From: Microbotryum violaceum
Lineage: Eukaryota
Length of the DNA stretch: 64,000 bases
Reading direction: 5' to 3'
Assembly: GCA_001244265.2 (NCBI GenBank)
Contig: CDLV01000004.1
Location: forward strand, 310,001-374,000
A program made the position numbers and the translations under genes. This document shows positions 1 to 64,000 of this stretch, piece after piece. Numbering within the stretch: the stretch's first letter is position 1; each line of letters opens with the position of its first letter. The notes beneath the pieces are model-generated. The model was given only the letters and a program-made list of their open reading frames with translations. It did not search any database and was not told the origin of the DNA.

Positions 1-1126
1 ACGCTCTCGCTTATGCTTACCGCTGCGTCCGCAATGTCTGTTCTTACATACCCTGGGTGTGTCAAACGTGCTCAGAATCGGATCAGTCGAAATCGCAATC
101 CATCACCAAACTTGCCGCTCACCTCTGGAACTTCCTGAGAGACCAGGGGGACCTCGCATCTGCCCAACTTGGCGAGGACGACGAAGAGCTTGTTCGCGCG
201 GCTTTTGCAGCGGCAGAGGCCGGAGGTAATACGACTTTCGCTTCGATAGTACCACCCACCATCATCACACGGTCGCCATCCAACATTCCTTCCCCAACTC
301 AGATGGAGCAATGCAAACAGTACATTGCAGAGTTGCGAGACCTGGCGCAACGCATGTCCAAGCTGTACGGAGTGGAAACCCTGGCCTTTATTGTCCCTCG
401 TTATCAAGACGACGTGTCGCCAGCGACGAAGGCGACCGTGCATTCGATAGGTGGGCTCAGATTTGCAGCTCACTGCAACGACTTCAAGGATCCATCCGGC
501 AATTCCTTGTTGTCTAATTTTGCTTCCAAGATGAGCTGGGATGAGACACTCAAGGCCAATGAAGCGGCAGATCTGAAAGAGGGTGAGCCTTTCATCGCAA
601 GTTATACGCGCATGAGACCAAGTTACCGTTACCAATTATGTGACATATGTTTTCGTCTCATCTATCAGCAAGAACTCGCTCGATGGACAGTGCTACTCGT
701 GGCGTTCTTGGCAAATGACACGGCACTCTGTTCCGCGCCCAACTCAGTAAGTAGTCTGCATCTGATCGGGCTCGACTCCGTGCTAATCATTTCCGTCTTT
801 ACAGACTCTGCCCTCGAGACTATACATCGCCGTTCCGACACGGGATCATCGACAGGCGCTTTCACACCTCAGAAGAAGATGATATGGTCTACCTAGGGCT
901 TGAAGGCACTGGGTGCCAAATGCGGATCAAGCCCGGGACGAAGAGTAGATACGAAATGGCTCTGCATCATAGTGCAGAGACATCGCCCAAGCAAACCGTT
1001 GCTCAGCTCAAGGCTATCATTGACGACCTCCGTCACGGCCGCCTCGCTATCGTACCCTCGGCGGACCCGAACGACAACACGGAGGCAGAAGCAAGCGACA
1101 ATGACTTGGCGGAGAAGGACCCCTGA
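1..1126 (+). pseudogene. HMG-box-like KDZ partner gene, 3' part, spliced and probably frameshifted
   Basis: Motifs TKLAAHLWNFL, LYGVETLAFIV...VHSIGGLRF and KQTVAQLKAIIDDLRHGRL match the partner genes at 31331-33634 and 61237-63045. A GTAAGT...CAG intron lies at about 748-803. Confidence 0.6.
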
Positions 1127-6100: not shown

Positions 6101-7464
6101 CTGTCCCTGTCCCAGAGCCCACCTTGTTAAAAGGATCCTCCGAGAATAATTCAGAGGACCAAAAGAGAATGAGCGCTTCGGACATGTCATAGATACCAAA
6201 AGGATCTACCCCCAGTAGGTGTCGAGATATTCGATCGTGCGAAAGGTGAATGCGGTGATGCCTTCTCTTTTTCGGATTGAAGATGACGACGTCGGGAGAA
6301 GACCGTGAGCTGCCAGGGTTTGGATCTCGGATAGCATGGGCAGTATCGTAGTTCTCGTATGCCTGCTCATGGTTGGGGGATATCAAATCAGTCCAAGACG
6401 ATAGCGTAGGGGTGATTGACAAAAGATGTGCAGCAGAAGCACCTACCTGCAAAGAACAGGTCGACAACCACCTGCAAAGAACAGGTCGACAACCCGGACC
6501 TTTCTGGTGACTCGGCGTTCATGACATGCGTCGCACCACCCCTCGTCGTCCGGGAAGGGACAAACCCGCTCTGTCGAAGCACTTCTTTGGCCTTTTTCTT
6601 CATCAATAGGTACGCCTGGAGAAGTTCAGCTTCGGCCCTCGCATTCCGGCGAAGATTGCGCTGCTTCTTGGCGTTCCTCTTGATCTGTGATCGCTTAAGG
6701 GAAGAGGGCGCTTGGTCTTGAGAAGCACCGTCTGGGTGGAATGGCGAATGCTCCGGTCCAGATGAGTATCCACCGCCGAAATAGTGACCAAAGTCGTAGT
6801 CGGGCTCAAAGTCAGGCGCGCTGTTAGGCTTGAAGTTGTGCTCGAAGCCGCCGGTCTCGGTGTCTAGAGGCCACGCCGTTGCGCCATCGGCAATGTCAGT
6901 CCAAGGCTCGGACGATGATTTGTGGAGGCCGGCAATGGATTTCTCCGAATGCTCCTTCCGACGACGCGTTGACCTCTGGACCGATGGTGATGTGGGAGGG
7001 CTCGGCTGACGTTTCGGACGCCTCTTCGTTGGAGAGCGGAAAATACCGAAATTGAAGCCGAACGTCTTCTCGAACAGCTCGCTATCCGGGGACAACGATG
7101 GCTCCCTTTTCCGTACTCGCTTGGTCCATAATCTCCTCCTCTTCATCTTCTTCGTCTTTGCCTCCTCCTCCGTTCCGACCGACGTCGTGGCCCCATTCTC
7201 GAACGTGTCCTTGTTGCTGCTGGTCACCTTCTTCCTCCTCCTCCTCCTCACGGTCGTGCTCTTCTTGCGCTTGGTCTTGTCAGGCGTTTTCCCTTCTCTG
7301 TTCCGACTGGCGATGCTGAGCGAGGTTGTAGAGGTGGTGGTGTGTGTGGTAGGATGTCCATGCTTGAAGCGATGGGTGCGAGCCTGCAAGGCCTTGGTTG
7401 GAGGGAAGTGGGGGGGAACTCGTGGTGCTGAGGCAGATGGACCATGAGCGGGGATAAGTAGCAA
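3194..7464 (-). pseudogene. KDZ transposase (CxC1-like + KDZ domain), multi-exon, disrupted
   Basis: Diagnostic motifs in order: CPACFG, IAVDGNFQH, ECTANWKAAD, DTGLVAAVCRHD, SGEK, GVAYDIAC, MHAYAHKWSCQ, FGLTDAEGAERLWSQL, then a helical and acidic tail. A 25-bp duplication frameshifts the N-terminal region. The start is uncertain. Confidence 0.85.
6445..6494. repeat. 25-bp perfect tandem duplication inside the KDZ transposase
   Basis: ACCTGCAAAGAACAGGTCGACAACC twice; the length is not a multiple of 3. Confidence 0.9.
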
Positions 7465-7489
7465 GTGCCCGGATTAGTGACCACTTTTG

Positions 7490-7652
7490 CCTCCGGGGCT
7501 GGGGGTTGGCAGGGCAATGGTGCACCTAGCCCGCACCAACGTTTTCCTGGGCCAAATCTTCGAAAAGCTCCCTAAACTCGCCGCGCGCGGGGTAGTATAT
7601 TTGTTAGGCTTATTTTGACCCGCATAGGTGAGCGTTAGGCGGCGTATTTGTG
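7490..7652. repeat. Right imperfect TIR of KDZ family 1
   Basis: The reverse complement aligns by eye with 44822-44985 (blocks CCCCGCG..GGCGAGTT, GCTTTT, TTTGGCCC, GTTGGT, GGTGCACCA.TGCCCT). The outer limit is approximate. Confidence 0.65.
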
Positions 7653-16934: not shown

Positions 16935-16938
16935 GGTT

Positions 16939-23007
<6,069 letters not shown>

Positions 23008-23012
23008 GTAGC

Positions 23013-26723: not shown

Positions 26724-26980
26724 GAATCGACCAATTCCGCCTCGTCGCTGCTCGAGAGCGCCTGAGGCGTGGGTTGCAGTAACCGGTTGGTCCAATTGAC
26801 AGCGGGATCGGCTCGACTGTTGTACGCGTCGAGGTGCTTCTTGGTCGTGGCGTGTCGGACGGCGCGACGATACCACATGCGCTCGCCACCACAGTATCGG
26901 CACACATAGCCGGCAGAAGCTCGCTGAGAGGACCATTCCAAAACAAAGTCTGTGGATGATGGCGATGAGGATGATGACAT
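26724..26980 (-). pseudogene. N-terminal C2H2 zinc-finger fragment, probably of a DNA-transposon ORF, cut by the copia LTR
   Basis: MSSSS...YVCRYCGGERMWYRRAVRHATTKKH (CxxC-x12-H-x5-H); the frame runs into the LTR. Confidence 0.5.
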
Positions 26981-27812: not shown

Positions 27813-30788
27813 CACGCGCGCGCTGATTTTACCCAAGCGCGTGGTAATTCTAGCCGTCACTTGTAAATACCAGGCCGTCGGGTATTACCCAGACGCCTGG
27901 GTATTTCCAGGTCGCGAGGTGATATCGCCCAGGCCGAAGGAGAGTCTGCCCAGGCGCGTGGTAATACCAGCCGGCACCATTACTACCCTCGCCCGGTGGT
28001 TTTCCCAGCCAGGTATGGTATTGTCCACTTATATATTGGATCTAGATCCTAGTCATACCGCTACTCTCAGCTGTCTCAGCATGAGCCAAATGACTTCTAG
28101 CCTAGCAGATGGAAAACAGCTGGGAATGGATTACAAGTCCAAGATATTGGGCCGAGCTTCGTCCTCCAATCGGTCAAAAATATACTCGCGAGGCTCTTCT
28201 CGAGTCTCGACCCACCCTCCGATAGATGCGACCAGCTGAGCCTAAGATGCAGCGCAGATCTATAATCTCGATCGCTCCCAGAGTTCCTTGACCTCGAGTG
28301 AAAAACAAGTTTTGGTGCCTCTGCACACTGACAACAAAAGCAGCCTTTCTTTTTTGCCGCCTTTGCGCTGGCTTGGCCACCGGAGTCCGCTCGATAGCGT
28401 CGACGGCTTCCAATCGACTTAGATTAAGAGACCTGATCTTCCCTACCAGGAAAGTTTGTGGAGTGAGAGGCACAAATTAGTGTTTGTACGTGAGTCGTCG
28501 CCGTCGTCGTCGTCGTCGAATGGGAGCGAGCTACTAGAGCTGGAGCGGTCCTCGTATTCCAGGTCAGGAGACACCATTCCCCAATCAAATGCCGCGTCAA
28601 ACTGTTGTGTCGCGAAAATCTTCTTCGTCCAATCCTAGCGCTTGGTCCTCACTTGACCCCATTGATCCCCCGACCGAAGAAGCTCGCTCGGACTCGTAAT
28701 CTCCTTGAGAAGAGTAGGGACCTTTGGGACTGGTGGGCACTCCATATTGCGCTTCGTTTGTGGCTGATTGTGGTGGCGAGCGACTTGCAAACCAACCAGG
28801 AGTTGGTAAAGGGGCCTGGAACGATTGGGCCTCAGGAGCAAGCAACGTTGGAGGTTCCGATGGCTACCGCGAGAACTCGAGGATAGCAGTTGCGTCGGCT
28901 CTGGCAGAGTCAACAGGTTGTAGGCGTTTGTGGCGGTAGAACTAGTGTCGCTCTTGATACCATTGCATCATTGCACAACGAACAATGGCATAGGCGAGAA
29001 GACTGGTTGCGTGTCATGGTGGCGCAATCGATTGGTTAATTACCGTGAGACGTGAGACTGAAGAGCAACGAACGACGCTAAGTCCGGCAGGCCATCCGGG
29101 ACATTAGGGCTACAGTAATGAGCAATACGAGCAGCGATTAGGCAGATTTGATTATGTGCGCTGAAGAATGGCGCCATGCGTCCGCGCGCTTCTTTCCTTC
29201 TTTCGCCTTCGATCCACTTGTGCCCACGTCGAAGCTCAACCGTCCCCGCCTACGTCTTCCTACCATGACACGAACATCGTCGACCACGGCAAGACGTACA
29301 ACAAGGATGGACAAGGAGAACTAACCACCGCATGATTGGCGCCCACGTGTGTACAGAGAGCTGAAATCTTCGCGGTCTGCGTCTGCACCGCCACAGTTGA
29401 GGGAACTTGCTGACGTGTTCTTTTTCAACCCCGCCGCCGTCCTTTACCATCGGCCCACTGCGGCTACCTGTCTTCTTGTTTCTTCCAGCCAGAAAATACG
29501 TTGAAAAGACAAGGGTTCTATGAGCCTGCGCGAGTATACTATACTTGGGTTTGCGTGAGTACCGGCGGCTCAACGATCGGGCGCGACGCCATCTCGTCGA
29601 TCTGACTCCTCAGTGCTCACTATCTGTGTGATGTCCTTCGACCAGTCGGTTATACGGGATGCACTAGTAAAGGCAGGAATCACCACACCTGACCCCATCA
29701 ACCTTTATGGTTGGCATGTGGACTCCAGACTACCACACGCCTAAGGGGTTCAACCTCAAGGACGCGTTCAGGCTCATTCAAGCCAAAACGCAAAGCAACA
29801 CTACTGTGTGGGGACGTTTTGGACCTGCAAAACAACGAGATATCGTCAAATATGTGAGTTGCGTGGAACCTGCCAGTCTTGTACGGAGCGTGCGCTTGCT
29901 CGGGCACTCACTCGTCATCCTCTTTCAGATTCGTGAGCGCACGGCTTTCTTAAGGGTCATATCGGGCGACTGGCTCTATGAAGAACTTGTTATTGATGCG
30001 TTGGCGAATGTCCTGAGCCGCGTATAGACTGCAGTACGACCGTGAGGCCTGTCGGTTGGCGGGAATCATGGGACGGCTTTTCAGGGCGGGCATCACAAGA
30101 TTGCTCAACGAGCTAGGCGCAGGATCTGCTCTGAAGGTTAGTCGCTACTCTCGATTGAACAAGAGGCCCGGGTCAGTCAAAATCGGCGAAGGAGGCGAAC
30201 GCTAAACAATCTTCTCGCATTAGCCAGAAGACGATCACTAGGCGGGTCCGTCGCAGAGAAGAAAGCGAGGAAGAGCAGTCTCGGGTAGAGGAAGAGGAAG
30301 AGGAAGAGGAAGAGGAATAATTAGAGCCGACTAAAGGGAATAAGAAACGGGCAAGAGGAGCGGCAGCCGGAGCTTCGGGCGGTTTAGATCTTGATCAATC
30401 CGACAATCCAGACAAATGGGAGGAGCCTGTGACGGACGTGGACACTCAGTTTGCTGCTTTGTAGTGTACCTATATCATAATACAGTAGAAAACCCTGCAT
30501 TGAAAAACTACAATTCGGATATGAGCATTAGTAAATTCGAATACAAGTATCAGTAAATTCGAGTGTAAGCATTAGTAAATTCGAATATGAGCATTAGTAC
30601 TGCGAAGGTGACACCCATCACAAAAAACCTAATGCTAATTGCGCTCGGTCGTGCTCCGCACAAGAGCCCCTACTGAGACTTTTCGGGTGGAAATACCAGC
30701 TGAGAAGGTTAATACCCAACCGACAGAAATACCAGCGGCTTGGGTAATACCCCTCGTGAAGTGGTAATACCCGCACCTCGGGCAGACA
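27813..30788. mobile_element. Degenerate DNA-transposon-like segment with two divergent ORF relics
   Basis: GGTAATACC/AAATACC motifs cluster at both ends (27840-27990 and 30689-30772). A minus-strand relic reads MTRNQSSRLCHCSLCNDAMVSRAT (about 29017 leftward). A plus-strand spliced relic at about 29630-30460 includes FLRVISGDWLYEELV. Confidence 0.4.
30512..30599. repeat. 22-bp minisatellite, 4 units
   Basis: Consensus AATTCGAATATGAGCATTAGTA; units start at 30512, 30534, 30556 and 30578. Confidence 0.85.
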
Positions 30789-30895
30789 TAAAAAATACGC
30801 CTAAACAGGCGCGCGCGCAGCGCCCCATCACGTGCCTTCCAAGTCACTGCCCCAGCGGGGTGTACCCTTGCTACCCCAGGGCGCCGACTTGGCCC
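30789..30895. repeat. Left TIR of KDZ family 2
   Basis: TAAAAAATACGCCTAAACAGGCGCGCGCGC...GACTTGGCCC; reverse complement of 39764-39870. Confidence 0.95.
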
Positions 30896-31330
30896 CGTTG
30901 AGGTATGCCCACCTCGATGTCGAGCTACCGAGACGTTCACTCCCACTATAACTCGGTGGAAAACCTGGAAACAAAGGCACAGTCGGCGAGTAATAGTGCA
31001 TTCGGATTTTTGCATATTTTTTGAGAGTTACTATTGTCCTCTGCAAGCTGAACAAGAGCGCTACCTCAAACACGTGATTCGGCACGGGTCGCGCGGAACA
31101 ATTGGGGCCGGGACTGGCCGGGACGTCGACGCGTCACGACTCCGGAGACGCTGGAGAGGGCCGCGACGCGTCGCGCTCGCGCATACCGCCCATTCTTTTG
31201 CTTTGCTCAATCGCCCCCTACTACGTATACGAAGTAACGAACTAGAAACGAGCATCCGTGACTTTGCGACAGTCTGAAACGAACGCCCACTTCGAAATAC
31301 CGGATCAGTCATAGTCTTGCTGCTCCTGTC

Positions 31331-33634
31331 ATGATGAGTCAATCCCATCAACCACCTTCCAAATCGCAGCCAACGTTTGGCGCTCCGGCGATGAACAGCA
31401 GTATGTTTGCCGCCGATCGACACGGGTGCTCTGCCTGGACTACCGGCTCACGATCACATCTGACACATAGGTTCATAAGCTGCCTCTAGGTACGAGTCGT
31501 GCACCTTGCCTTGGACTCCCTATCAGTCCGCATATATCGACTATTCGGGTCCGTGGGTGGCCGTCGCGTCGATCGCGTATAGCATCGGTCTGGTCTGACG
31601 TTACACCGTCGTGCACCCGATCCAGCGTCCACTTCCGCTGGCGTAACGGCCATCTCGAACCCTGCGTCGTACAACTATCCATCGTCTCCGGGATCTGCTT
31701 CGTCCAATCAACCAGTTTACCGTCCCACGTTCCCCGATCCTGGACGCATCGATGGCCCATATCTAGCTCCGCCAACAAGCAACAATCTCGCAAGCATCGC
31801 AAGTATGGTCGAACAAGGAGGAAACAGTTCCGACAGCACGGGTATTGTCTTTGACGCGGCAGGTTTGCCAAATACTACTTAGCCTTCCGCTCACGATCGC
31901 CAAACGTCGCGGGCCGCACAAGTTTCCCAAAACGAGGAGGCAGGCCGCGCATCGCTGAACCACCCGCGAGCGTCCCGCAGTCAGTGTCTGCAGAGGACGG
32001 TGCCGGCGGTTCGATGGTCCATCAGTCGTTCCTTTCCACAGCACCTTACCAGTTCGCTCCGACCGGAATACCATCCAATGCTGCACTGAAAAAGCTCCTG
32101 GCTTCGACGACCGAGCGGAGGACAGCAAGTTGGACGCCGGCGAAGAGGCTGTTGCCGGAGGAGCTATACGAGCAGGCGTACTCCGCTGATACGCGCAACC
32201 CCAACAAGACGGAACGAGAACAACATAAGGCGTGGGCTGTGCAGAGGTTGTACGAAGAATTCGAATACTGCATCGAGAATAAAATTCGGCCGGACGACTT
32301 GAGACAGGTCACTTCGCCCGTTAGCCGGCTGTCGGCGAGCAACCCATGGAACGACTTTCAGAAAAGTCGATTCTTTGCAGCGCTTCTGATCAACGACGGG
32401 CATACCGGTAAGCCAGCGCTTCAACTTCGGCCTTCTCGTCTATCCTGACCAACTCAACGCTGAGCAATGCATTCTATAAGTACATTCAGTTCCAACCAAA
32501 TTGATGCAAAGGAAGGACCTAGCGCGCGTGTATTGGAACAGAATCTGCAGCAGTGAGGCTGAGAAGGTGGAGTGTCTCGCGGCTCTTGCATTGGAGCAGG
32601 CCGAGGACGATGCGGCCGCGCACCTTTCATCGGATCCACCGCTTCGAGCGGCCCACCTTGCATCGGCTCCGCAGCCTCGAAGCAGAACGAACCTGGCCAT
32701 GATCAAAAAGGCGAGGCAGGGACTGCAAGCATCCTTGACATCCTTGGTGAGAGTCCTTCTGAGTCCAAGCTTCAGATCGGAGGCCCTTTTGCTTATCGAT
32801 TCTTCACCGTTCCCTTTTCGGAAGGCCAATATCTTTTCGGACAACTACGGCATCGAGATGTTTGCTATCGCCTCCTCGAATTTACCCGAGACCAACAAGG
32901 AGCACTTTGTGGTCGCTTCCGTGGGCGGGGCGGCGTTTGCGCTTCGACAGGGTTGGGCCGACAAGGGGCAGGGACCGCTGGTCCGCGACTTTGCGCATTG
33001 CGTCGCAGGCACAGCGATTATAGCAGACAAGCGGGCCAGCATTGTCAGCGCCGGTGAGTGGCGAGATTTTACCGGATCTCAGGAAAGGGCAATAGCTAGT
33101 AGAGGTCAATTGATGTATCAGCGAATGTCTGCTCACAGCTTGGAACGCACCCGTGGCCGACAAGAACGTTGAGACCAAACGCCAATGGTACAGCCTCATC
33201 CTCAAGGAATTGTTCCGTGAGTACAATGAGTGCAGCCTGCCTACTCTTCCATACACGGTGCCTAATCTTGACCCGGCTCACTGTCTTCAGAGTCCGCGCT
33301 GCGCCGACGCTCCGTACTAGACGGCGAGAAAATCCAATCGCCCAAGTTCGTTTATAACGTAAAGGCCCTCCGGGACAACGCCAGAATCATTGTTCAGCGC
33401 GGCGCGCTCCTTCGCAAAGCGGATTTTCGAAGCCCGAGTGGCAAGCTCAAGTTGTTGGGACCCGACCTAGATCGGATCATCCCATTGCTGCGTGCAGGCG
33501 AGCTGAGCTTCATGCTGGAGGAAGAAGTAATCGGGTCAAGTGCCGACCAGGCAATGGCCGACGGCGGTGAAGGTGGCGACAGCGATGCTGACCGACGAAC
33601 TCGGAACACGAGCTCCGACGAGGACAGCGAGTGA
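31331..33634 (+). CDS. HMG-box-like KDZ partner gene, multi-exon (start and integrity uncertain)
   Basis: SNPWNDFQKSRFF, intron at 32408, KDLARVYWNRI, NYGIEMFAIASSN...FVVASVGGAAF, DFRSP...LDRIIPLLRAGELSF and an acidic tail. Confidence 0.65.
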
Positions 33635-35116
33635 GGTGACGATGGCCGAGCGCTCAGGGCCAGCCGGACTCGTCGACGCGCATGCTGAAGGGCCAGAATT
33701 CGTTGGACAACACAGGCCACCACGATCCTTCTTTTATAGTTTTGCTTCATATGCATCCGGCTCTTGGTGCCTAAAGGCGGAGAGGGTTATTGTTCGTTGG
33801 CCCTTCGTGCCTAATCTTCCCCAGGGCCGCTCGAGACCGACCTCTCCTTGTTGACGTGGGATGTGCCAGTGACGTAATCCTGCTCACAAACATCATCCTT
33901 CTTGTTCTGTTTTGTTTCCGAAGTGTTATGTAGAGTTGAATTGCCCTGTGAGAATGGAGTGCTCCCTGATCCGTGGTCCAGACGGAGCGTCTGCTTTCCG
34001 GAAGTGATTCTTTGAGCAAAGAATGAATGAACAGAAGTCGCAACGCGATTCCACAAATTGCAGTGTATGTTAGCATCTTCTTATCATCTCTCAACACTAA
34101 AGTGAACGGGCAAGGGTTGCATCTGGCCGGGCTCGGTCTTCGCCAAAGTGCCAATCAGAACTGCTGGGCCACGCCGGCCGATTGACTTCAAGCGGCGCGC
34201 GCTCCTAGAAGCTGAGCCTGAACGCGCAAATGAAGCGGAGCGGAACACGTAGGAAATCAGTCGTAAGTAGCGAAGTAGCGACGAAGTACGTGCTTGATGA
34301 GAGGCGGGTCGTACTCGATAATATATTCGGTGAGAACATGGAAGGCTTAAGCTTGTAACAGGCTTTTGAACCAAAAAGCCCAATTGACTCCGAGACACAG
34401 TAATCGATGCAGTGGCAAATCGGCAGCCGTACCTGGCGGCTGACTTGAAAGCGTCTGAAACTGGAAAGTTCTCGATGGGCCGCTCATACCTACCTCTTAC
34501 TTGAGAAACATCCCTTCTCGTCAATGAGATATGCCGCCAATCCTCAGACCACATGGTGAGTGCTCAAAGCAGAGAGAATTCTTGCATTAAGTTCGCCGCA
34601 CTAAGATGAATTGTCAGTGGCATTTCTGGTGAATCCGAATGTACAAAGACTCGGCGGTATGAAGCCATTCAGCTCTCATCGCGATCTTCGAGTTAGGCAT
34701 GTTCTCAGATTATGACTCTATGATATTACTCGGGCTCTGATGTATTGTCGGCCATGAGAGCCGTCCGAAGAGTGTCGCAGCATCGAGCGGTCCACTAATG
34801 GTTGACCTGACTTCCCGGATGGGTCTCCTGAAGCTCCTATCTAAGGGTTATAGTTGCATCATCATCTCTGTTTGCTGTATGCGCGGATCTAATTGATTTG
34901 ACGCCATGAAAGGTCTTGTTCGTCACCGGTGTGCGCAGTCTAGGAGGTGAGGAAAAACGATCTCCGATTTCCCGTCAAGCATAGACTTGTTGACACCAAG
35001 CTTTTCTTAAAACACGCGCAAGTCTCGGTAGCAGGGATGGGGATCAGTGCAAAGGTTCTTTGGCCGCGCCATGGCAGAAAGTCGAGTCCTTCGAGCGGGA
35101 ATTCTCAGAGAGAGTG

Positions 35117-36052
35117 AACCGCCCAGCCGTCTTGTTCGGAAGAAGATACATTCTCTGTAGTGATCGAACCCACTCACCCATCTTCACGGGGTAGACCTTC
35201 TAGGTACTCGAGCAGTTGCATGCGTTTTGACTGAAATGACCCTCGGCACTGGTAAGGGAAACCGCCGAGCCATCTTGTTCGGAAGAAGGGCTTGCACGCA
35301 CATGCCAACTTTGCTATTCAACTCTGTCCGAAGGTAGGAGATACATTCTCTATATTGATCAAACCCCCTCACCCATTTTCACGTGGAAGGCATTCTAGGT
35401 ACTCGAGCAGTTGCATGCGCTTTGATTGGACAGTCACCCGGCACTGGTAAGGGAAACCGCCGAGCCATCTTGTTCGGAAGAAGGGCTTGCACGCACATGC
35501 CAACTTTGCTATTCAACCCTGTCCGAGGGTAAGAGATACATTCTATATAGTGATCGAACCCACTCACCCATCTTCACGGGGTAGACCTTCTAGGTACTCG
35601 AGCAGTTGCATGCGTTTTGACTGAAATGACCCTCGGCACTGGTAAGGGAAACCGCCGAGCCATCTTGTTCGGAAGAAGGGCTTGCACGCACATGCCAACT
35701 TTGCTATTCAACTCTGTCCGAAGGTAGGAGATACATTCTCTATATTGATCAAACCCCCTCACCCATTTTCACGTGGAAGGCATTCTAGGTACTCGAGCAG
35801 TTGCATGCGCTTTGATTGGACAGTCACCCGGCACTGGTAAGGGAAACCGCCGAGCCATCTTGTTCGGAAGAAGGGCTTGCACGCACATGCCAACTTTGCT
35901 ATTCAACCCTGTCCGAGGGTAAGAGATACATTCTCTATAGTGATCGAACCCACTCACCCATTTTCACGTGGTAGACATTCTAGGTACTCGAGCAATTGCA
36001 TGCGCTTTGATTGAAAAGTCACCCGGCAAGTCACCCGGCAAGTCACCCGGCA
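35117..36052. repeat. 195-bp tandem array arranged as a 390-bp AB higher-order repeat
   Basis: Units start at 35144, 35339, 35534 and 35729, with a partial unit at 35924. Alternate units are near-identical. The array ends in 3 x AGTCACCCGGCA (36017-36052). Confidence 0.95.
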
Positions 36053-36225
36053 GGAGTCTAATAAGGCAGGCGCAGCCCAGAGATTAGGTCTGACAATATT
36101 TCTTTCTAGAAGACGGTGTTATTACTCTCACCCACCGCAATTGAGACGACTATAGTTTGCAAACACCATTTCCATTGTTTCAACATTAAGTTGCTCCACT
36201 AATTCAATTTACATCAGAAGCTAGT

Positions 36226-39200
36226 CTAAACGTCCGAGAAGTATTCGTCTTCCTGACCAGCGAAGTCATCGCCGTAGCTTTCATCTGAAGAGCTGCCCAT
36301 CTCACCGTCCTGCTCGAGGAGTTGTGCGGAGAGAGGCCCCACCTCCTTTGCGAGTTCAGCCCCGTCGCTCATATCCATCTGTGCCTCAATGGCCCGCACT
36401 TGCTGAACGTCACGGGCCGGCGGTGGAGGCCCCGCGGAGTCGTCGAGGCCAGATCTCTCCATAGTACCGCGTGTTCCGGATCGATTATGTGCAGGTCGCT
36501 CGTGATGTTTTGTCTTCTTGACAGCTCTTCCCGTTGCGTTCAATCGTTGATGTAAACCACGAAGTTCTGACAATGCAGGAGGCATGGGCTCGGAATGGCC
36601 CTCTGACTGCCCGCGAGTCTCGAGCCAAACATCGAAGAAATAGTTGTTCTGGGACCAAGAACATTCGCGCAACTGCAGAAGCTCCATCCGGCGATCTAGT
36701 ATGATGAGCGCGCGGCCTCGGATCTCTTCAACATCTTCAGTGCCGAATATGGACTTGGCATCAGCTGGGTCGATGGATTCAGGAAGGGTATCTGTTGAGA
36801 TGGTTTGAAAGATGTTAGGGCGACCTAAGAGGTGATATGGAGCACGCCGTGTCGAAAACTTACCCGACACGTTAGTCCAAAGTGTCTGGCAACTAGTGAG
36901 ACGAGCTTTTTCATCTTCGAGCCAAGCCAAAGCTTGCCGCACCTCGGCGCCGATCCGCGCTTTCTCCTCACCGACTCGATCCTTGGCGCGCACAGCTGTT
37001 ACTCCTCGCTTGACCCAAGGATTGACAGCCCAAGCAGCTTCAACACGCGTGAAAAAGCCGTCCTGCCAGAACGGGTCCGTCTCATCGAGGTCGATCGCAG
37101 AAGCTGTCGGAAATCCGGAGATTGTTGAGTAGGCTCGAAGGTGTTGATCCCATCGCGAGACGGAAGGCCTCAACGGCCTTGTTGTACGTCTTGCGAGCCT
37201 TTTCCGCGCCAGAATAAATCTTGCCGTCTGTAGCACGAGCTTTGCTGACCGCTCGTTGACCTAGCTTTGCACCTCCCTTGCCACGACCCGTCGAAAGTAG
37301 CTTCTCCCGACTGGTTTTGTAGGCAATCACCTCGAGATGAATTTTGCGCAACGCCACAGAGCACTGGAACAGATGTCGAAGTTCTGCACAGCACCTAAGC
37401 TATCAGTGCAAGCTACAGCAATCATGTGAGCAACACACATTAACTGACCTCTGGACGAGAGGCCCGTGACATAACGAGCCTGTGCCATTGCCGCTCGATC
37501 GATGTCCATCCCGAGGCTGCGGCGTTTGGCGCTTAGCGATTCCAAGACGTCTGAATCGGGCTCTTCGGTATCCCTTTGCAAAAGCCCAGCAAGTCAGAAT
37601 CATAGACAGTGAGCGACGGCCTGGCCAGATGATCTACGTATATTCGCGACTCAATCTTGTAGAGGCTCTCCATAAGTCCATAGAGGTCGCTCTCCCTCAG
37701 GCGATCCGCCTCCGATTGCTGCGCAGCTGTCTTTGGCACTTGCGCCAGTCGCTGTTCTTCCCACTCGCGGCGGAGCGCATCTTCGTTCAACCTCGAATCG
37801 TAGGCAATGATGCTATTAAGCTCTTCCTCAGCAGCGACACCCTTGTCGTTTGCCTCATGGTAGCGACGATAGAACCAGGCCCCTAAATAAAACATATCGA
37901 GTGTCAGCATTGTGATTGAGATAATTGCGATCTAGGTGCGGCTTACCCAGCTTGTTGACGGTCGCGTCATTCAGTGCTTGGATACGGACCGCCAGGTTGA
38001 CGAAGCGATGGGACTTGTTCGAGGGGCGGTTGATGGGAATGAGCGACCGTAGCCCGCTCCACAATCGCTCACAGCCCTCTCCATCAGTCAGCCCGAAGTT
38101 CGGAATGAGGCGCGGGTTGAACTCGACTTGGCAGGACCAGATATGGGCGTATGCATGGAAGACGCTCGTGGCGAACTCCAGTCGCTTGAAAAGCTTTGGC
38201 AGGAGCTGCCTCTGGTGACAAATGATAAAGTAGGCGCATTTGGTCAGTGCCAACGAAATTGAGGAGGAAGGGACCCGTCGTAATCGATGCGAACCTTTTC
38301 AATGTGGTGCTTGAAGTTACAAGCAATGTCGTATAAGACTCCGATCTTGGCGTGTTCAGGAAGGCGCTCTGAAATGTGCTTGAGGATGGCAAGCGCATAG
38401 TACAATCTGAGTGGTCGGAGGGGAATCTGCGCATTAGTACTGGGATTCGAGAGGAAAGCGGAAGCGACTAAGTCTCGCCAGACAGCTCCGCGCTTACTTT
38501 TCACCAGACCTCTCAAGATTGACCATTTTCAGGTTCACGTCATGACGGCATACGCAGGCAACGAGTCCGGTGTCGACTACTCGTGACGAGGTTGAGCCAG
38601 CTCCGTCGTCGGCAGCCTTCCACGACTCTGTGCACGCCTATGACGGTGGGTGGGTGTAGAGGCAAGCGATCCCATTAAGGCAAATGCAAAGAGCGGCATT
38701 ACTCACTTTTTTGGTCGGTCGCACCGAAGCTTTAACCTCGGCCTCCATCGCCTGAACCTCTTCCTCAGCCAAGAAAATGTCCGGAACGATTCCTTGGACG
38801 TCATGCTTCGAGTTTTTCTCACGCGTTTGCTGAAAGTTACCGTCGTATGCAAGCACGCAATCCAATGTGACGTCGTGACAAGGTTGATTAAGTCACGTTG
38901 GCCCGAAGCACGCGGGACACTTGTTGGAACGAATCGACGGTGCCTGCGAGAAGGTCCCCGCTGTCCTCCTCGCATGTTTCGAGAGCGCGGTACTCGTCGA
39001 TCGCGTTGCTTCCGAAGGTCTTTGTCCTGTATGCGCAGAAGGCAGGCTTTAAGCAAGTGCCCATGAGGCGATGGCGGCGTCCAAACTCACCCAAGGATGT
39101 CCCGTATAGTGACCCCGACCCCACCCACAACGGGAGTAATACTCTTTGAGGCCGTCCGCATAGCCAGTGATAGCGCGGGGGCTGACCTTCCAGCTTGCTT

Positions 39201-39378
39201 GGGCCTGCTCGACCAGTCGAAATGAGAAGGCGGTCATCGGCATTGAAGCAGTCGAAGAGATGAACCCTAGTTGGGCCAAGCGTTCGACGTCCGTAGCACA
39301 CCGCGACTCGGAAGCACAGAAGGTGACCTGCAATTTGTAGACCGACGGTTTGGACTTGTATCTTCTCTTCGGCGGCAT
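36226..39378 (-). pseudogene. KDZ transposase (CxC1-like + KDZ domain), multi-exon, probably frameshifted
   Basis: VTFC...LGFISS...TAFSFRL, CPACFG, AYDGNFQQ, ACTESWKAADD, DTGLVACVCRHD, IGVLYDIAC, VFHAYAHIWSCQVEFNPR, FGLTDGEGCERLWSGL. Confidence 0.88.
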
Positions 39379-39763
39379 GGCGATGCCGAGTCAAGTGCAT
39401 GAGCAAGAGGACTAATGCGAGCCGTGGGGCCTGTACAGTCGATGGCGACGCTACAAGGAGCTGTAGCGAAAGCAACGAGGTGAGGCGGCATGTCAAGTGG
39501 AAGGTCCCTCGCGTGTTGCGCTAGGCCTCGGCGCGCGTGGCCGACTGCCGACTGCCGCCAACGCGTGTGCTCGGACCCTTCGATCTCGGGACCGAAATCC
39601 CGCGCGACCGCTTCGGACACGTGACATTGACAACATCCGAAAGATGCGTGAAAAATATGAAGGAAGGAATGCATCTACTACCCACTTTCCTAATCAATCT
39701 AGCAGCTGTGAGAGTGTTGTGTGTACACAGAATCGACTCGAAGCAGAGAGTTGGGTGTAACCT

Positions 39764-39870
39764 GGGCCAAGTCGGCGCCCTGGGGTAGCAAGGGTACACC
39801 CCGCTGGGGCAGTGACTTGGAAGGCACGTGAGGGGGCGCTGCGCGCGCGCCTGTTTAGGCGTATTTTTTA
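39764..39870. repeat. Right TIR of KDZ family 2
   Basis: Reverse complement of 30789-30895. Confidence 0.95.
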
Positions 39871-44821: not shown

Positions 44822-44985
44822 GCAAACTCGCGCAAAGGCCCAGATCGGCAGGTCCGTTAACCCAGCCAAATGAGCTCCCCCGCGGGCGAGTTAAGGCAGC
44901 TTTTTTGTTTTTTGGCCCGGTTGGAGGTTGGTACAGGTCGGGTGCACCAATGCCCTCCCCACCCCATCCCACCCGGCGCAGTGCA
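44822..44985. repeat. Left imperfect TIR of KDZ family 1
   Basis: Aligns by eye to the reverse complement of 7490-7652; the outer limit is approximate. Confidence 0.65.
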
Positions 44986-45681
44986 CCTCAAAGGGTCATA
45001 AGTAATAAGGGGCCACTAGTTCGTGTAAGACTCACCATCATCACGAATAACACTTTCCGAAGACTCCGTCGTAAGTTCGAATTATGTCATAAATGTCATA
45101 CAGCTTGTCGTACTCAGTCCATTCAATTCGTGTAGTTCCGTATACCATCAACTGATATGTGTACGACAGATCCTGTGTAGACCTTTTCTCATATTCGTTA
45201 ATTTGGATACGACGGAGGGAGTACACACCGCGTCTATTGGGCCCGAGGGAGGGATCGGTCGTGGTCCCTGAAATCCTGGATCGGTCCTCGGGCAGACAAA
45301 CGCGTATTCTGAACGGTGTGCACTGAGCATAGAAAATGAATATCTAGTGAAACCTCTTCGGACCGTCGACTTGGGTCCAGCGCCAATCAGTCCTGCATCA
45401 ATTCCTAGAGAGTAATTGAAGAGGCAAAATTGAGGCGGGGCTGTGCGGCCGCACGCGGAGCTCAGATTGGCGAGCGCTCTGCGTTAACACTTTGACCTCT
45501 GCACACTCACGTCAACGCGACAACGCGCATTCTTGACCCACGCCACGCCCCGCATCTCAATACGTTGAAACCTCCCCGCGCCTGTTGAACAAACATCGAT
45601 GCTATTGCCGTCTGGAGGTATGTGGACGCGTTTCCCCGCCTCACATCTCCCTCCTCATGGGCCTAACTGTGTTGCTCCACC

Positions 45682-47588
45682 ATGACGCGACCGTCAGACA
45701 TACGCGTGGGATCTAGGGAAGGTTCTCCGGCAGAGTCTATTTCCTTTGGCGCTCATCCGAGTGAGTGCTCTTGTCTGGTGTTCCAACTGAGATCCCTTGT
45801 AGCAGGGCTGAGAGCAGAGTGCCAGTCATCAACCTCATCCTTCTATCTACTCAATCCTGACGGACAGCTGAAGAAGTCTCTGTTCTCTCACACCTCTTGC
45901 AGGTCGGAGGGACGATCAAAGCCGTCGAGCCTCCTCACAAGCCAGTACAATTCTGGATGAACCGTCTCGACGCCCGACTCGGAAGAGAAAGCGGCGCATG
46001 CCCGTGCCCCAAACCCCTTCGTCCGACTCCGACTCTGACGAGCCCAATTTGGGCGATTCCAGTCAATCCTCGGCTGACGACAGTGACAGTGAAAGTGACA
46101 GTCACAGTCACAGTGAGAGCGAGTTTGAAGATGTCGCGATCGACCATCGAAGAGCTGTCAGGCTCTGGACGGCCATACATGGCTCGCATCGGAACGCGAC
46201 CGGTTGTATGAGTCAAAGAAAGTGGACCTCGCTGAAGCGCTGGGCCGCTCGAAGATATTACTCGGAGCTCAAGATGGCCGCGAAACTCGGCATATCTCAT
46301 GCAAGGCTCGTTCAGGCCGCCAAAAAGTTCGACAGGCTCGCTTCGAAGGGCAATGCGTGGTCTAAATTTCTCTCGGACCCTGTAATCAAGGTTTTACACT
46401 AGCGAGCAAGCAAGGGTGAGTGGTCCTCCGGGCGCTTCCGGTCATGCCCACTCCACTCTCCTACGCTCTCGCTTATGCTTACCGCTGCGTCCGCAATGTC
46501 TGTTCTTACATACCCTGGGTGTGTCAAACGTGCTCAGAATCGGATCAGTCGAAATCGCAATCCATCACCAAACTTGCCGCTCACCTCTGGAACTTCCTGA
46601 GAGACCAGGGGGACCTCGCATCTGCCCAACTTGGCGAGGACGACGAAGAGCTTGTTCGCGCGGCTTTTGCAGCGGCAGAGGCCGGAGGTAATACGACTTT
46701 CACTTCGATAGTACCACCCACCATCATCACACGGTCGCCATCCAACATTCCTTCCCCAACTCGGATGGAGCAATGCAAAAAGTACATTGCAGAGTTGCGA
46801 GACCTGGCGTAACGCATGTCCAAGCTGTACGGAGTGGAAACCCTGGCCTTTATTGTCCCTCGTTATCAAGACGACGTGTCGCCAGCGACGAAGGCGACCG
46901 TGCATTCGATAGGTGGGCTCAGATTTGCAGCTCACTGCAACGACTTCAAGGATCCATCCGGCAATTCCTTGTTGTCTAATTTTGCTTCCAAGATGAGCTG
47001 GGATGAGACACTCAAGGCCAATGAAGCGGCAGATCTGAAAGAGGGTGAGCCTTTCATCGCAAGTTATACGCGCATGAGACCAAGTTACCGTTACCAATTA
47101 TGTGACATATGTTTTCGTCTCATCTATCAGCAAGAACTCGCTCGATGGACAGTGCTACTCGTGGCGTTCTTGGCAAATGACACGGCACTCTGTTCCGCGC
47201 CCAACTCAGTAAGTAGTCTGCATCTGATCGGGCTCGACTCCGTGCTAATCATTTCCGTCTTTACAGACTCTGCCCTCGAGACTATACATCGCCGTTCCGA
47301 CACGGGATCATCGACAGGCGCTTTCACACCTCAGAAGAAGATGATATGGTCTACCCAGGGCTTGAAGGCACTGGGTGCCAAATGCGGATCAAGCCCGGGA
47401 CGAAGAGTAGATACGAAATGGCTCTGCATCATAGTGCAGAGACATCGCCCAAGCAAACCGTTGCTCAGCTCAAGGCTATCATTGACGACCTCCGTCACGG
47501 CCGCCTCGCTATCGTACCCTCGGCGGACCCGAACGACAACACGGAGGCAGAAGCAAGCGACAATGACTTGGCGGAGAAGGACCCCTGA
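45682..47588 (+). pseudogene. HMG-box-like KDZ partner gene, copy b, with premature stops
   Basis: Phase-consistent intron 45761-45902, RKRKRR motif, GNAWSKFLSD, intron at 46416. In-frame TAG at 46400 and TAA at 46810 (CAA in copy a). Confidence 0.65.
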
Positions 47589-48732
47589 GCCCAAGATTTG
47601 GTGGAGCCGGGGACGAAGGCGGAGAGGTACTCGGCGGAGAAAAAAGCGGAGAAGGGTGGCGGAGGAGACCGGAGGATGAATGAAGCAAAACATCGTCGAT
47701 GTGAGACCGTTCTGATGTCTTTCTTTGGGCATACTATGCTCTGAGTCGGTCTGCAAGATGACCGATATTTGTTATGTCTCTGTGGTTTGTGACGCGTCTT
47801 TCAGTGTAGATCCTTGAATTTAGTTTCAGATGATTGTCATGCACGCATACAGCGTCTCAGCTGCCATCTTGATTGTGGCAATTAATCTTAACAGGATTGT
47901 AAATCAATACGATCAGAACGCTCATTCTGTCAGGCTCCGCCAAGATCACTGGGCATACTCGAAACCCCCCCCCCCCCCAGCGGACTGTTTCCTACGTCAA
48001 GGCCCGGGGCCCCTGTGTGCTCCGGGCGCCGGCATCCCGTTCATCCACGGCCCCCCTTCCAGAGATTACGCTGGAGTCTTTCTTCACAACCAATCGTTCC
48101 GCACCTTTGTCCTACAAGGACTCGGGGCGCACCGCATGGGCCGCAGCACAACGGTGTGGCGCTCGCATCCAGGCAAGGCGACATCTCTGCGCATCTATTT
48201 ACCTTTGGGTCAACGAAATTAGAATAGCACTCGGCCGACGCATCTCCTCTTTCTTCTTCTTCTTCTTCTTCTGAACTTGTGATGTACAAGCAAATGGCCA
48301 TACACCTTTTCCAACTTCGACCTCATCGCCGTTTCTTGCGCCTCCCGTTTCAAACACACTTGGGAACCGATCCCTCCTAATCATTATCATATCCATGTAT
48401 CCATGCTTCGTCCGAAGGCACCGTACCATTGACCGGGTCTCGTTGCACAAGTCTGTTTGACCTTTTGGCCTACCGTTATCTTCTTCCCTTAGATACAATC
48501 TGACTTCACCTTCGTGTCGGACCGGTTGCCACTGCATAACCCTTAACTGCCTGCGCGCCGCAAAACCGGACGGTGGACAACTGTGAGGGCATTCGGTGGG
48601 AATGCAATACAGGGGTCAGACGACAGCTCGACCTCTCCTTTCATGTCCCATCCTGAATTCACCCATCGTCGCAACTATAAGACCCAACTGAAGACCAAGA
48701 AGTTGACCATCACAATGATGACAAGACGGTAT

Positions 48733-53401
<4,669 letters not shown>

Positions 53402-54328
53402 GGTATGTCCCGTCGAAAAGAACTCTGAAAACACCCTCCCGGTTTGGGTACTTTCAGTCTGACTCCAACACGACGTGTTGTCCACCTTGGGTTTGAGCCC
53501 TGATTGGTGTCAAAAGACTATATGACCTGCCATCGCCGAAAACCACGGCAGGGCAGTCGGTCGGTCGATATTAGAAGGAGGCCTAGGCCACAACAGCGTG
53601 CAGAACTCTCAAGCCGCCTAATGCGATGAGAAAACGTAGAGCAACGACAGAGCAAGGGGTGTATCAAGGTGAGTCTGACTCGCTCGTGGCTTTGTTCAGT
53701 AAAATACAGCACAATACTTCGGGTATGGGTGACTATGACTTGCTGCAGTTCGACTGTTGAAACGCAAGCGCCCGTGATGACGTACTTCGCATCGAGATTA
53801 CAGTGAGCGTGTGAACTACGCAGGAAGGAATTGCGACAAAGCAGTACGCTGGATCAGGACTTCGTTCAAGTATACATCAAAATGTAGTCGGCAGTGTTGG
53901 AATATAATAAGTACTTTTGCAATCCCTGCTGACTGTTTGGGAAGTGTCACCCAAGGCACGACGCGGACTGCGCATGTGACTGACTGGCAGGGAGCGCGGT
54001 CTACATGTAGGAGATCTCAGTGCAGTCAGTGCAACAAAGATGCAATGGACGCTTGTGTTCACTCCCTCAGTGTAGCGCGCTCTTCCTCTAAATCTTACCG
54101 GTCGTGTTGGGCTCCGGCTGCCAGCTTTACTCGAGCGACATTAGGCGAGCCACCGCAAGATCGAGCGATTTAGCGATGCCGGGTCTTGGATGTCTGATCG
54201 CTCTTGTTGCACTTCCGGGCGAAGCGTCGTATAACGGGTAGAATTACTAGCGAAATGAACGCATCATTGATCTCTTTACTAGTGCAAGTAGCAACTGGGC
54301 AAAAGACTGCAACTATATATGATCAATA

Positions 54329-54944
54329 TCAAATCCCCCAAAAAACATCGCCATCGTCTTCATCAAAGTCCTCGTTGATCTCGTCACTGAAGGCGCCGTA
54401 ATCGGTAGTGTCGACGGAATGATGACTCAGATCATCGCCCGAATGATCAATGATGTCAAGAAGGGTGTCATGATCCGTGGTGATGTCGTCTGACTCTCCG
54501 ACCATCCCATCATTGATGCAGTCTGGCCATGTGTGATCCGGCAAGCCACCCGCTGAGATTCGTTGAAAAACATCAACGTCGTCGGTGCACCACATTCGAA
54601 GCTCGACCCACTCCTCCACTTGCGGTTCGCCGGTTTGCCGGGTGCATTCCCACAGGTGATCTAGGCCGCCCTTCGAAAACCATCGGCGCGCAATATTTCT
54701 AAGACGCTCTTCTTCTTGCTCGAGCATCATCATCGCAGAGTCATCCTGCTCATCTCGTTGGATTGATTGCTGGCGAACTTGCTGAAACCTCTTGCGACGG
54801 CTTATCAGCCACCGTCCAATGCGACGCACTTCCCATGCAAGTCGCTTGATTTCTTGCTGGCATCTTGCGCGAGACAATACTGCTGGAATGCCGACACTAA
54901 CATCATCTTCGTAGGCCCACGGCTCAGTGGAATGACTATATAAT
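54329..54944 (-). pseudogene. 3' remnant of the family 1 KDZ transposase
   Basis: Near-identical to 3194-3809. Confidence 0.85.
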
Positions 54945-60590: not shown

Positions 60591-61236
60591 TCCCGTGATT
60601 TTGGCCTACCCTTGTTGAACTGCATTCTGCCAAGCCTTCGAACAATTCGACTTCGGGCCGCCGTTTGACGGGCTTGTCCGCCTTTCGCCTCGCGCCTTCG
60701 CCTTGGCGCCTTGACACGCGCACCTCTGGCTATATATCTAAGCACACCAAAAAGTGGCGCGCGCGGCGCCCCTTCCAGCGCCACTCTTAAGCGGCGTACC
60801 CATACAGGTTGCCCCCCCCCTGCAACCCGGGTTGTTCGAGGGCCCGAGGCCAAGGGCACACGGAGGCTTGTGTGGGCTCCAACAGTTTCATCTCATGTAC
60901 GTGTGTGCTCAAATCAGGTTATTCTAGTCATCGTAGTGTGTAATTCGTATTTGGAACACTCAGCGTCAATTTTTTCGGTAAATTATCAGCGAGGAGAGGT
61001 TCGATTAGGAAACATCATTACTAAAGTGATAAAATGGCATTATTGAACGTGATAGAGTCTCGTGCCCTTTCACCACGCTAACAAACGCAAGCGACACTGA
61101 GTGACAACGAGCGACTTGACGCCTTTTCACGCTTGACGCGCCGCTATCGACCACGTGCAGTCCTGGTCTTACCCCTTCCTGTCGCCGTTACGCTCTTCGT
61201 CATATATCTATACTTGACGCCATCCGACGATCCGAT

Positions 61237-63045
61237 ATGTCCAGCCTGTCTGCTCCCAGCAACGCGTCAGACTTTGCCGCTCCCACCCGTGAGACGCGTC
61301 CTCGTGTTTGTGATATGGGTGGTCCTTCTGCTCACCACCGTTCCTCGCTGTTTCTGCACAGCTGCTTCCCAACAGCGCAGACATGGGGTCCGTACTGTCT
61401 CCAATTACGGTTCAGACCCAACAGAACTACCTTCCTGCGCCCAGCGGCGCGACTCCCGAATGTGGACGAAGCACACCGCTCGCCTCAAGGCCGACCTCGT
61501 CCAACTCAATTGATCAACAAATCAAACAGATTCAGGAAGAGATTCGAGCTCTCCATGATGCCGTTCGTGCGTTGCCTTCAACTTCGCGAATGTCGTCGTC
61601 GCAGAAGCAGCCCCATGTGCTCTATGGCTTGCAATGTCGCCTCGAGACAATGAAGTATTGTCTGCATCACGGCGTTTGGGACGACGACCTCGACTCGTAC
61701 ATGCCTCGTGCGATCTGAAGGAATGTCACAAACGACTGGAAAGCTTTCAAGACGAGCCGCTTTTTCCACCCGCTCGTCGAGAAGGACGGACTCGAAGGTG
61801 GGCGCGGCGTCTGCCTTTCTAGCTCATCCCGAGATCGTTCATTTTGGCATTGCAAGACGCTCCTTTACGCTTCTTTGACTCACAAAGTGATCACTATGTA
61901 CCCCTACAAAGTCTCGCAAGGTTTTTCTACGCTAAACACAATTGGATCGCGCTACTGGGAAAAAGTCAAAGACTCGCCAGATCTTTATGAACAATGGAAG
62001 GAAGCGTGGGCAAGTGAAGCCGAAGCGCGTGAACATGAGCAGACCACTCGTCCCTTCAAGCGATGGCGAATCGATCCTGCTGCCATCACCAAACTGAGTC
62101 ACAAGTACGAAAAGGGGGTTCACGAACTGGTCCGTGACAATTCAGCTCTTCTCGTTGGGCTCTCCTCAATTCTCATGATCCTCCCGCTGACTTAGATAGC
62201 TTGGCACTGAATCAGGTTAATCAGCATGCTGACACCTACGGATTCGACGCGTTAGTCATCGTCGGCTCGAACAAGCTCGAGAATAAAAATGATCGTTTCA
62301 TCGTTTCGACGCTTGGCGGCGCAGCTTTCATGCGGCGCCAAACTGGGGTTCTCAAAAGAACGATGTGCTCGTTAACTTCACGGAATGCATAAATGGCACC
62401 CGGTTCAATCAGGAGCGAGACGAGCAATTCAAGATGGAAGGTCTGTCAGACAAGCTTCAGAACGGACCTTGTGCTCGGCGATAGATTGGTGCTGATTCCA
62501 AGAACTGATGAGCAGCTCATCATGGTGATGTTGACAAGGCGTCTCACCGAGTGCTCTGCACATGGTATCGCATTATCATTGATGATTACTATAGCAAGCA
62601 ATCATTCCACCGCTCTGCGCCCACATTTGGCAGCCCATGACTGAAGTTTTGTGGCCGTGCAGATCAAGCGCTCCGTCGTCGCCACAACAGAAACAAGTCT
62701 ATTCAGCCCTACGTGCCTTCCAAGCTTACGAGCTACAACCAGGAAACTCTTGCGAAGGATCCAACCGCTCTTGTTGTCGAGCTCGAAAACGGTCTTCACG
62801 AGCGTGATTTCCGCAGTCCTACCAATGGCAAGAAGCCGACCGTTGACAATTTGAGAAGAATTGTTCCATTGATGCGACAGGGTGGGCTTACGTTTTCGCT
62901 CAAAGAGGATATCGGCCAGGTCTCTTTTGACCGCACTCCTGCCGAGAGTACTTTGATGAGCGAGCAGTCGGAAACGGAGCCAGAAGACCAAGACACTGGT
63001 TCTGATTCTGGTTCTGATTCTGATTTGGGAGCTGCAACATTTTGA
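61237..63045 (+). pseudogene. HMG-box-like KDZ partner gene, family 3, multi-exon, apparently frameshifted
   Basis: TNDWKAFKTSRFF, intron at 61798, NTIGSRYWEKVKDSPDLYEQWKE, TYGFDALVIVGSN...FIVSTLGGAAF, DFRSP...LRRIVPLMRQGGLTF and an acidic tail. Confidence 0.65.
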
Positions 63046-63072
63046 TTCCGAATCCGACTCCATTTCTATCGT

Positions 63073-63935
63073 TCAGTATATTGTTGGTGCGCCTATCGCG
63101 CGTTGAGGTAGATTGCCAAACTTTTTGTAGTCGTTGAGGTGATATCGACTTGTGTGTGGCAAGAGGTATTCAACAAGTTTCCACGCATCTTGACTAGCTT
63201 GACTGTCCGTCCGTTGATCAATTATGCGACGCATTTTTGATCGCAAAGCAAATCGCAAAGCAAATAGATTTACCCGCGCTAAACGTTTCAGATTTTACTC
63301 CATAGATTCAGGCAGATAATGGATGTTCAAATAAAGCACTCACTCATCCTACCTACTGTCAAACTGCAGTTAAGCTCGTCCCAGAGCTTGGGGGTGACCA
63401 ACAGCAAAGCACCCAGATTTCTTCCACTACCCCTTCGGACCCCCCGAGACGCCGGTGAAGTGACAGCAGAACCTTGTCGAGAATGTCCTTAATAACACGC
63501 TTCGCGTAGGGTTCTTCAAACAGCGTGCCCACGGTGAGAAGGAGAGCCGAGATTATTCGTTGGCGCTGGAACAATAGACATAAAACAGAAGCAGGGAACA
63601 AGGTAGTTCACCACTTCTGACCTGCAGACGCAAGATCGCAAGGTGTCCGAGCTTGCTAGCTGACCACGGTGTTCTAGCTGAGGGCCAGGGAAATACGACG
63701 CTGCATTACGCGTAATCAATGCCTTTTCTGCTGAATTGTCAATGGAAGGGGGCGTAAAGTCGGCATCGAGATAGTGGCAGCTTGGTGCTGAGGCGTCAAT
63801 GACTTCGTAGTAGCAATTCTCGTTGTTGGCCGAGTCGCTTGCATACAAGCTACAAGCGCTAGCGTTCATAGGTCGCGCTCGGTGCCGACTACGTATTGCT
63901 TCACGCCTGGGACAGGCAATGTGCCAGGTGGCCAC
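63073..63935 (-). other. 3' exons of a possible unknown gene convergent with the partner gene
   Basis: Three successive minus-strand ORFs with protein-like composition, separated by intron-sized gaps. The stop lies 27 bp from the partner gene stop. Confidence 0.3.
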
Positions 63936-64000
63936 TATATCTCGTCTCGTGCAAATACTCGATGATCTTGATCTTTGTGTCCCGCAGACAGAATCGCTGG

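Follow-up and report, generated by a model that had tools for sequence, protein, structure and literature searches.

KDZ transposons of Microbotryum violaceum carry a conserved partner gene with a predicted DNA-binding architecture

KDZ elements are large cut-and-paste transposons, active in fungi, whose extra genes have been reported without predicted domains in the available sections of the source (PMC11588098). We analysed a stretch of 64,000 nucleotides of Microbotryum violaceum (hereafter the window; contig CDLV01000004.1, positions 310,001 to 374,000, or G000:C2:310001-374000), taken from a fungal, intron-containing assembly of 33.2 Mb, in which a KDZ element, here called family 2, holds a spliced gene, the partner, that converges on the transposase gene between terminal inverted repeats (TIRs). 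This two-gene module is conserved among diverged element families. Comparison of coding sequences indicates that the partner is under purifying selection and inherited together with the transposase, and its predicted HMG box, pairing domain and DNA-binding domain suggest a dedicated DNA-binding helper of KDZ transposons. For one extra gene of these elements this provides a concrete predicted architecture, together with a candidate site of binding and a role that can be tested. The family-2 element comprises the following features.

30774..39870, no strand: family-2 KDZ (CxC1) DNA transposon, defective copy of about 9.1 kb, delimited by copy comparison
30774..30895, plus strand: left TIR, 122 bp, CA terminus; seven other loci begin or end at the same base
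30809..30818, no strand: alternating CG run of 10 bases, palindromic and subterminal; candidate protein-binding site
31805..33634, plus strand: partner gene; exons 31805-31862, 31922-32407, 32490-32746, 32825-33053, 33139-33216 and 33291-33634
32335..32610, plus strand: HMG-box-like three-helix domain (blocks 1-2), predicted fold, split by the intron 32408-32489
32690..33013, plus strand: MADS/NRF1-dimerisation-like domain, helix-strand-strand-helix (block 3), predicted fold, split by the intron 32747-32824
33139..33520, plus strand: predicted C-terminal GTF2I-repeat/NRF1-DNA-binding-like domain (short exon and block 4), then an acidic tail
35138..36028, no strand: 195-bp tandem repeat separating the two convergent genes
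36226..39378, minus strand: intron-rich KDZ transposase gene with a CxC1 domain, from Pfam matches, splice joints and assembly
39764..39870, minus strand: right TIR without its terminal 15 bases; its CG run lies at 39841-39850

The first-pass annotation had placed this element within TIRs at about 9.1-9.2 kb, which agrees with the comparison of copies except that the element starts at 30774 and not at 30789. Target duplications of 8 bp were read at three other family-2 copies (L072, L074 and L079); the duplication is unreadable at the window copy because its right end is cut. Further defects of this copy are one missing base in the N-terminal part of the partner and an in-frame transposase stop between CxC1 and the catalytic core. 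The KDZ transposase domain (PF18758) was matched with an E value of 7.2e-22 (78.6 bits against a cut-off of 26.6) and the N-terminal CxC zinc cluster CxC1 (PF18802) with an E value of 5.7e-8. RNA-like cover shows two genes only, an Rfam scan of the element returned 0 matches, and database proteins labelled Microbotryum match a family-2 exon at up to 99% identity.

The runs that provide this cover, X2 and X4, are guessed to be RNA, no listed run being recorded as such, but they do skip GT..AG introns; both stem from one study of a related strain. Their contigs have the transposase introns spliced out and support the four 3' introns of the partner as GT..AG joints: 32408-32489, 33054-33138 and 33217-33290 are skipped exactly in both, and 32747-32824 in X2 only. 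Runs X6 and X9 gave no partner splice joints. The first intron and the start of the gene follow from database models and other copies. A start at 31331, as first annotated, found no support, since the reading frame is open from the methionine equivalent to 31805 to block 1 at all seven other family-2 loci, save for a single stop seen in two loci that overlap within one and the same copy. Over this interval the window gene is one base shorter than the other loci (a deletion near 31975), and its conserved core is still open. All three partner genes in the window, of families 1, 2 and 3, are damaged, and open copies are present elsewhere in the genome.

The four ordered blocks of conserved residues that the annotation described in these three genes are present where it put them. 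Its phase-1 donors at 46416, 32408 and 61798 were likewise confirmed, with the split codon being the 19th or 20th after the block-1 tryptophan. The shared introns go further than was claimed. When the genes were spliced by script, families 1-3 were found to have three phase-1 introns in common, the one following block 1 and two additional ones, which follow block 3 and a 26-codon exon; families 2 and 3 also share a phase-0 intron inside block 3.

Similarity between the partners of families 2 and 3 is significant, in that the last exon of family 3 finds family 2 (E 1.8e-7) and the full-length database models P0002 and P0019 are 27% identical over 438 residues (E 3.5e-34). With BLAST, the family-1 partner matched none of the other 7 cluster representatives, and its block-3 exon found no other family at E<=0.01; exon hidden Markov models score family 1 at E values of only 0.01-1, yet it is the top outside match for all three of them. 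Profile-profile comparison does join it to the others (probability 97.5%, E 5.8e-12, 318 columns), whereas the controls, one reversed and six block-shuffled, all stayed at or below 0.9% probability (7/7 under 1%). A profile search of 1.84 billion representatives retrieved 27 proteins, four of them distant (E 4e-20 to 1.5e-5), of which three carry a source name (Sporobolomyces johnsonii, Phenoliferia psychrophenolica, Phenoliferia sp.). No homologue from agarics turned up, the named matches being only Microbotryum, Sporobolomyces and Phenoliferia. In the ESM Atlas, clusters from Basidiomycota scored 0.96, 0.95 and 0.94, the second being auto-named HMG box. Word-based searches with A7 and P0061 returned their own members only, and metagenome scans with A9 and P0055 gave 172 and 239 pattern matches, 0 of them confirmed. 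One database fusion protein, P0021, is more likely a gene-model chimera.

Linkage was counted over the search places of this genome, as a convergent PF18758 match within 10 kb. Among 36 family-2/3-like places, 24 show such a match, as do 17 of the 22 family-1 places, against a chance of about 1% per place. In the opposite direction, 41 of 68 KDZ places have a partner. Two of the 27 without a counted partner have one at 10.3 and 11.6 kb; the remaining 25 (10 kb downstream inspected) include 24 truncated or deleted pieces of families 1-5 and one diverged KDZ copy, L100, that has no partner. This copy (G000:C10:558518-560120) encodes a CxC1-KDZ protein with 35% identity to the family-2 core, has neither partner nor TIRs nearby, and is a relic or a domesticated gene.

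The ratio of nonsynonymous to synonymous substitution (dN/dS; Nei-Gojobori, 157-243 codons) between partners, a check proposed with the annotation, is consistent with constraint: 0.24 for 3a/3b (dS 0.48), 0.19 for families 4/5 (dS 1.06) and 0.19 for families 2/6 (dS 1.97), the other 25 of 28 pairs having dS above 1.2 or saturated. Within families, the corresponding pN/pS values of the partner are 0.32, 0.87, 0.48 and 0.62. KDZ cores are 82-84% identical among families 2, 4 and 5, 60-67% identical to family 3 and 55-58% to family 1, values that track partner divergence except for 3a and 3b (L110 and L112). The KDZ cores of this pair are 99% identical and the partners stand at dS 0.48; the element halves have therefore been exchanged or homogenised.

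The fold of the partner was examined in predicted models. In models of two proteins only 18% identical, the same three segments each receive a DNA-binding fold, three in all, and both models ranked NRF1 first across two domains in the right order. GTF2I is absent from the list of P0013. For blocks 1-2 the predicted fold agrees with the HMG-like box suggested at first. Blocks 3-4, which had been regarded as one unassignable domain, instead appear as two, a MADS/NRF1-dimerisation-like and a GTF2I/NRF1-DNA-binding-like domain. Block 3 has the MADS-type helix-strand-strand-helix fold and a dimer through a shared sheet in the predicted models, and a homodimer model from an alignment-free method gives a MADS-type interface paired through the first strand. 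As modelled, the protein would work like NRF1 plus an HMG box. Sequence signatures fail, and for this reason we do not class the partner as a MADS, NRF1 or HMG member. Pfam searches with exons, full models and distant homologues gave nothing above cut-off; the HMG-box profile had no partner match at E<=1 or 5, the Nrf1 DNA-binding profile is not among the Pfam matches of partner exons or models, and none of the 10 genome matches to the MADS signature (PF00319) is a partner exon. A host MADS protein scored 13.9 against the partner profile, which is not significant beside shuffles at 9.8-17.4. A PDB sequence search with profile A4 gave one unrelated match (E 0.18), a viral fold library nothing at E<=0.001, and the ESM Atlas, among named clusters for blocks 3-4, a best score of 0.80 with no family.

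A candidate site for such a protein lies in the element ends. All 12 ends, from six families, contain an alternating CG run that begins 36-44 bases from the terminus and reaches at least 6 bases in 10 of the 12; across 3199 window bins, runs of 6 and 5 occur in 1.5% and 4.3%. It is the sole such feature of the first 120 bases, except that families 5 and 8 have one repeat next to it. End bases 7-34 have only 7-15 of 28 positions in common between families. Binding of this run by the partner is our inference.

Taken together, we tentatively read the partner, with somewhat less than an even chance, as the second core gene of KDZ transposons, encoding a trans-acting dimeric DNA-binding cofactor of transposition. 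The MADS-like domain would pair two partner copies through its first strand, and the dimer may read the palindromic CG run that lies 36-50 bases in from each terminus, the predicted domain order being that of the dimerisation and DNA-binding domains of NRF1. The HMG box might then bend the element end, and the bent, bound ends could be loaded or paired for the KDZ transposase. TnpA, itself the product of a second conserved gene with a DNA-binding fold, has an analogous end-loading or end-pairing role for En/Spm, as do Harbinger's Myb protein and, for RAG, HMGB1. A required accessory factor, as first suggested, remains the simplest reading, but the partner is not required in cis: a non-autonomous family-2 derivative of about 5.8 kb, which shares deletions in both genes and has lost most of the partner through a common internal deletion, has at least 7 copies (L079 and, from among the 25 inspected places, the six loci L094, L095, L098, L101, L103 and L104).

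The same folds could serve expression, with the partner as the element's own transcription activator or as an anti-silencing factor at CpG-rich ends. HMG, MADS, NRF1 and GTF2I are all transcription-factor folds, an acidic tail is present, both genes begin about 0.5-1 kb or less from a TIR and are transcribed inward, and the candidate site is purely CpG; transposon anti-silencing proteins have also been described (Vandal, and TET/JBP in fungal KDZ elements in the available part of PMC12730594). Yet the CG run keeps a constant distance from the cut site across families in which the intervening bases are dissimilar, and a geometric role therefore fits better than a promoter. We consider an expression role possible though unlikely; it is compatible with the cofactor reading and may be a second job of the same protein.

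It is less probable still that the partner is required and conserved while its MADS, NRF1 and GTF2I likeness is coincidental, its own fold perhaps acting through the transposase and not through DNA. Two models of such dissimilar proteins would then agree by accident on three DNA-binding folds and on NRF1 as first match over two domains in order, and an alignment-free method on a MADS-type interface. The DNA-binding folds would also suit a role in targeting, with the partner tethering the transposase to GC-rich host DNA or chosen chromatin, and in family 1 several target duplications resemble one another and are rich in pyrimidines (3 of 7 right flanks read); the three family-2 duplications read have no common motif, and we regard such targeting as quite improbable. 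Passive carriage of a captured host gene, despite the many broken copies, the within-family pN/pS of 0.32-0.87 and the spread of a deletion subfamily, is already largely refuted by a place and orientation kept down to 20% identity, dN/dS of about 0.2 between subfamilies, conserved introns and many open frames, and has hardly any likelihood left.

Mushroom KDZ elements reportedly carry an HMG-like companion gene, attributed to Iyer et al. in 2014, which may correspond to this partner; the HMG part is for that reason probably already known, and what we put forward as new is confined to the conserved CG run and the MADS/NRF1-like assignment. A literature search by titles and abstract starts, covering work outside subscription, found no KDZ-borne protein described as MADS- or NRF1-like. 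In the accessible text of Kojima 2025 (PMC12730594) a term search for 'HMG' gave no occurrence and no MADS/NRF1-like domain is mentioned; the text deals with TET/JBP cargo, whereas family 2 shows only two genes. According to the same text, Dileera and Kyakuja elements of rusts and mushrooms share the KDZ transposase seen here, Dileera also the 8-bp duplication and Kyakuja the CA..TG termini. [quoted passage not shown]

Human NRF1 (PDB 8k4l and 8k3d) resembles the partner as predicted here in that a small, separate DNA-binding domain comes after its MADS-like dimerisation domain, and its dimers bind two GCGC half-sites that recall the subterminal CG run, as far as covered by the source (PMC10810270). 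The partner differs in its 10-14% identity, lack of a Pfam match, extra N-terminal HMG-like box and transposon origin, and the likeness is taken from fold ranges, not from residue pairs such as would cover R206, N242 and R244, with which NRF1 reads bases. SRF, MCM1 and MEF2 have the same helix-strand-strand-helix fold and the dimer through the first strand that is predicted for the partner, but the PF00319 signature is absent from it, structural alignments give 9-25% identity, and a second DNA-binding-like domain follows. Harbinger, like KDZ here, has a second conserved gene with a DNA-binding fold (Myb/SANT, so stated for Nuwa in the accessible part of PMC12730594) and a convergent arrangement (PMC12477816, likewise in part); both it and En/Spm differ in having an unrelated transposase superfamily and partner fold. 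If the cofactor reading is true, KDZ would be a two-component system like these. It is rather doubtful that the partner truly belongs, as a transposon-borne protein, to a MADS/NRF1/GTF2I superfamily, which would make fungal KDZ elements a two-component system with an NRF1-like subunit reading GCGC sites in the ends and give NRF1/EWG and GTF2I repeats a common ancestry with such mobile genes. Should the MADS/NRF1 likeness be homology, a mobile gene would be linked to a transcription-factor fold of open origin, the link of NRF1/EWG to SRF being left unexplained in the NRF1 structure paper (PMC10810270).

Parts of three further KDZ copies lie in the window.

1..7630, no strand: family-1 element whose left end lies outside the window, about 3.4 kb to its left; the 3' part of the partner (plus strand, 1-1126) faces the KDZ transposase (minus strand)
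44841..54944, no strand: second family-1 copy, right side cut, with a copia insertion at 48733-53401
60721..64000, no strand: left part of a family-3 element; TIR 60721-60854, partner 61237-63045 with one stop and one frameshift

The KDZ domain of the first family-1 copy is at 4782-5159 on the minus strand, and the partner of the second (about 45998-47679) has three stops and frameshifts. Family 1 had also been described as convergent genes inside TIRs, at about 9.1-9.2 kb; convergence holds, but over about 100 bases the inverted repeats at the ends match at only about 73%, and a full copy measures about 9.27 kb. Its target duplications are exact 8-bp repeats at 3 of 6 left ends read and 9 bp at one, and no family-1 place is found among the 49 CxC1 matches in the genome. 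Family 3 is bounded by 135-bp TIRs, from window position 60721 to G000:C2:386191, and continues past the window end with a third gene, a copia insertion and a KDZ gene that is convergent on the partner inside the TIRs. The third gene (L055:2099-3633, G000:C2:374099-375633) lies on the partner's strand and has a CxxC motif and no Pfam match. Families 4, 5 and 8 are TIR-bounded with the same two-gene plan, family 8 containing a decayed CxC1/KDZ; family 6 keeps a convergent transposase remnant, and no transposase was seen at the one locus of family 7. Tandem arrays of about 190-200 bp between the convergent genes, as in family 2, recur in similar form in families 3, 5 and 8.

At the family-7 locus (L106:1814-4086) there is a 295-bp inverted duplication of the partner block-1 exon, with an 800-bp fold-back upstream. 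About 3 kb away from this partner locus there is a host MADS gene of the SRF type (L106:6000-7149; G000:C1:1980909-1981122), with an equally scoring copy at C2:1952637-1952850, and this proximity is probably coincidence or segmental duplication. In the window, an intron-rich DUF6729 mobile gene (54809-60433, minus strand, E 1.4e-10) cuts the second family-1 copy; it also has a 3'-5' exonuclease-like domain, and the genome has 13 DUF6729 matches. The idea that family-3 or family-7/8 partners serve this adjacent element was dropped because the family-3 partner has a KDZ gene opposite it inside the TIRs of that family and family 8 has a decayed CxC1/KDZ. Between the transposon clusters, 8300-11950 holds what we take, from its motifs, to be a host Set2-like histone methyltransferase gene. 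Nested copia and gypsy long terminal repeat elements occupy 16745-26724 and 48733-53401, and the copia at 48733 is 99.6% identical to the one inside family 3 just past the window.

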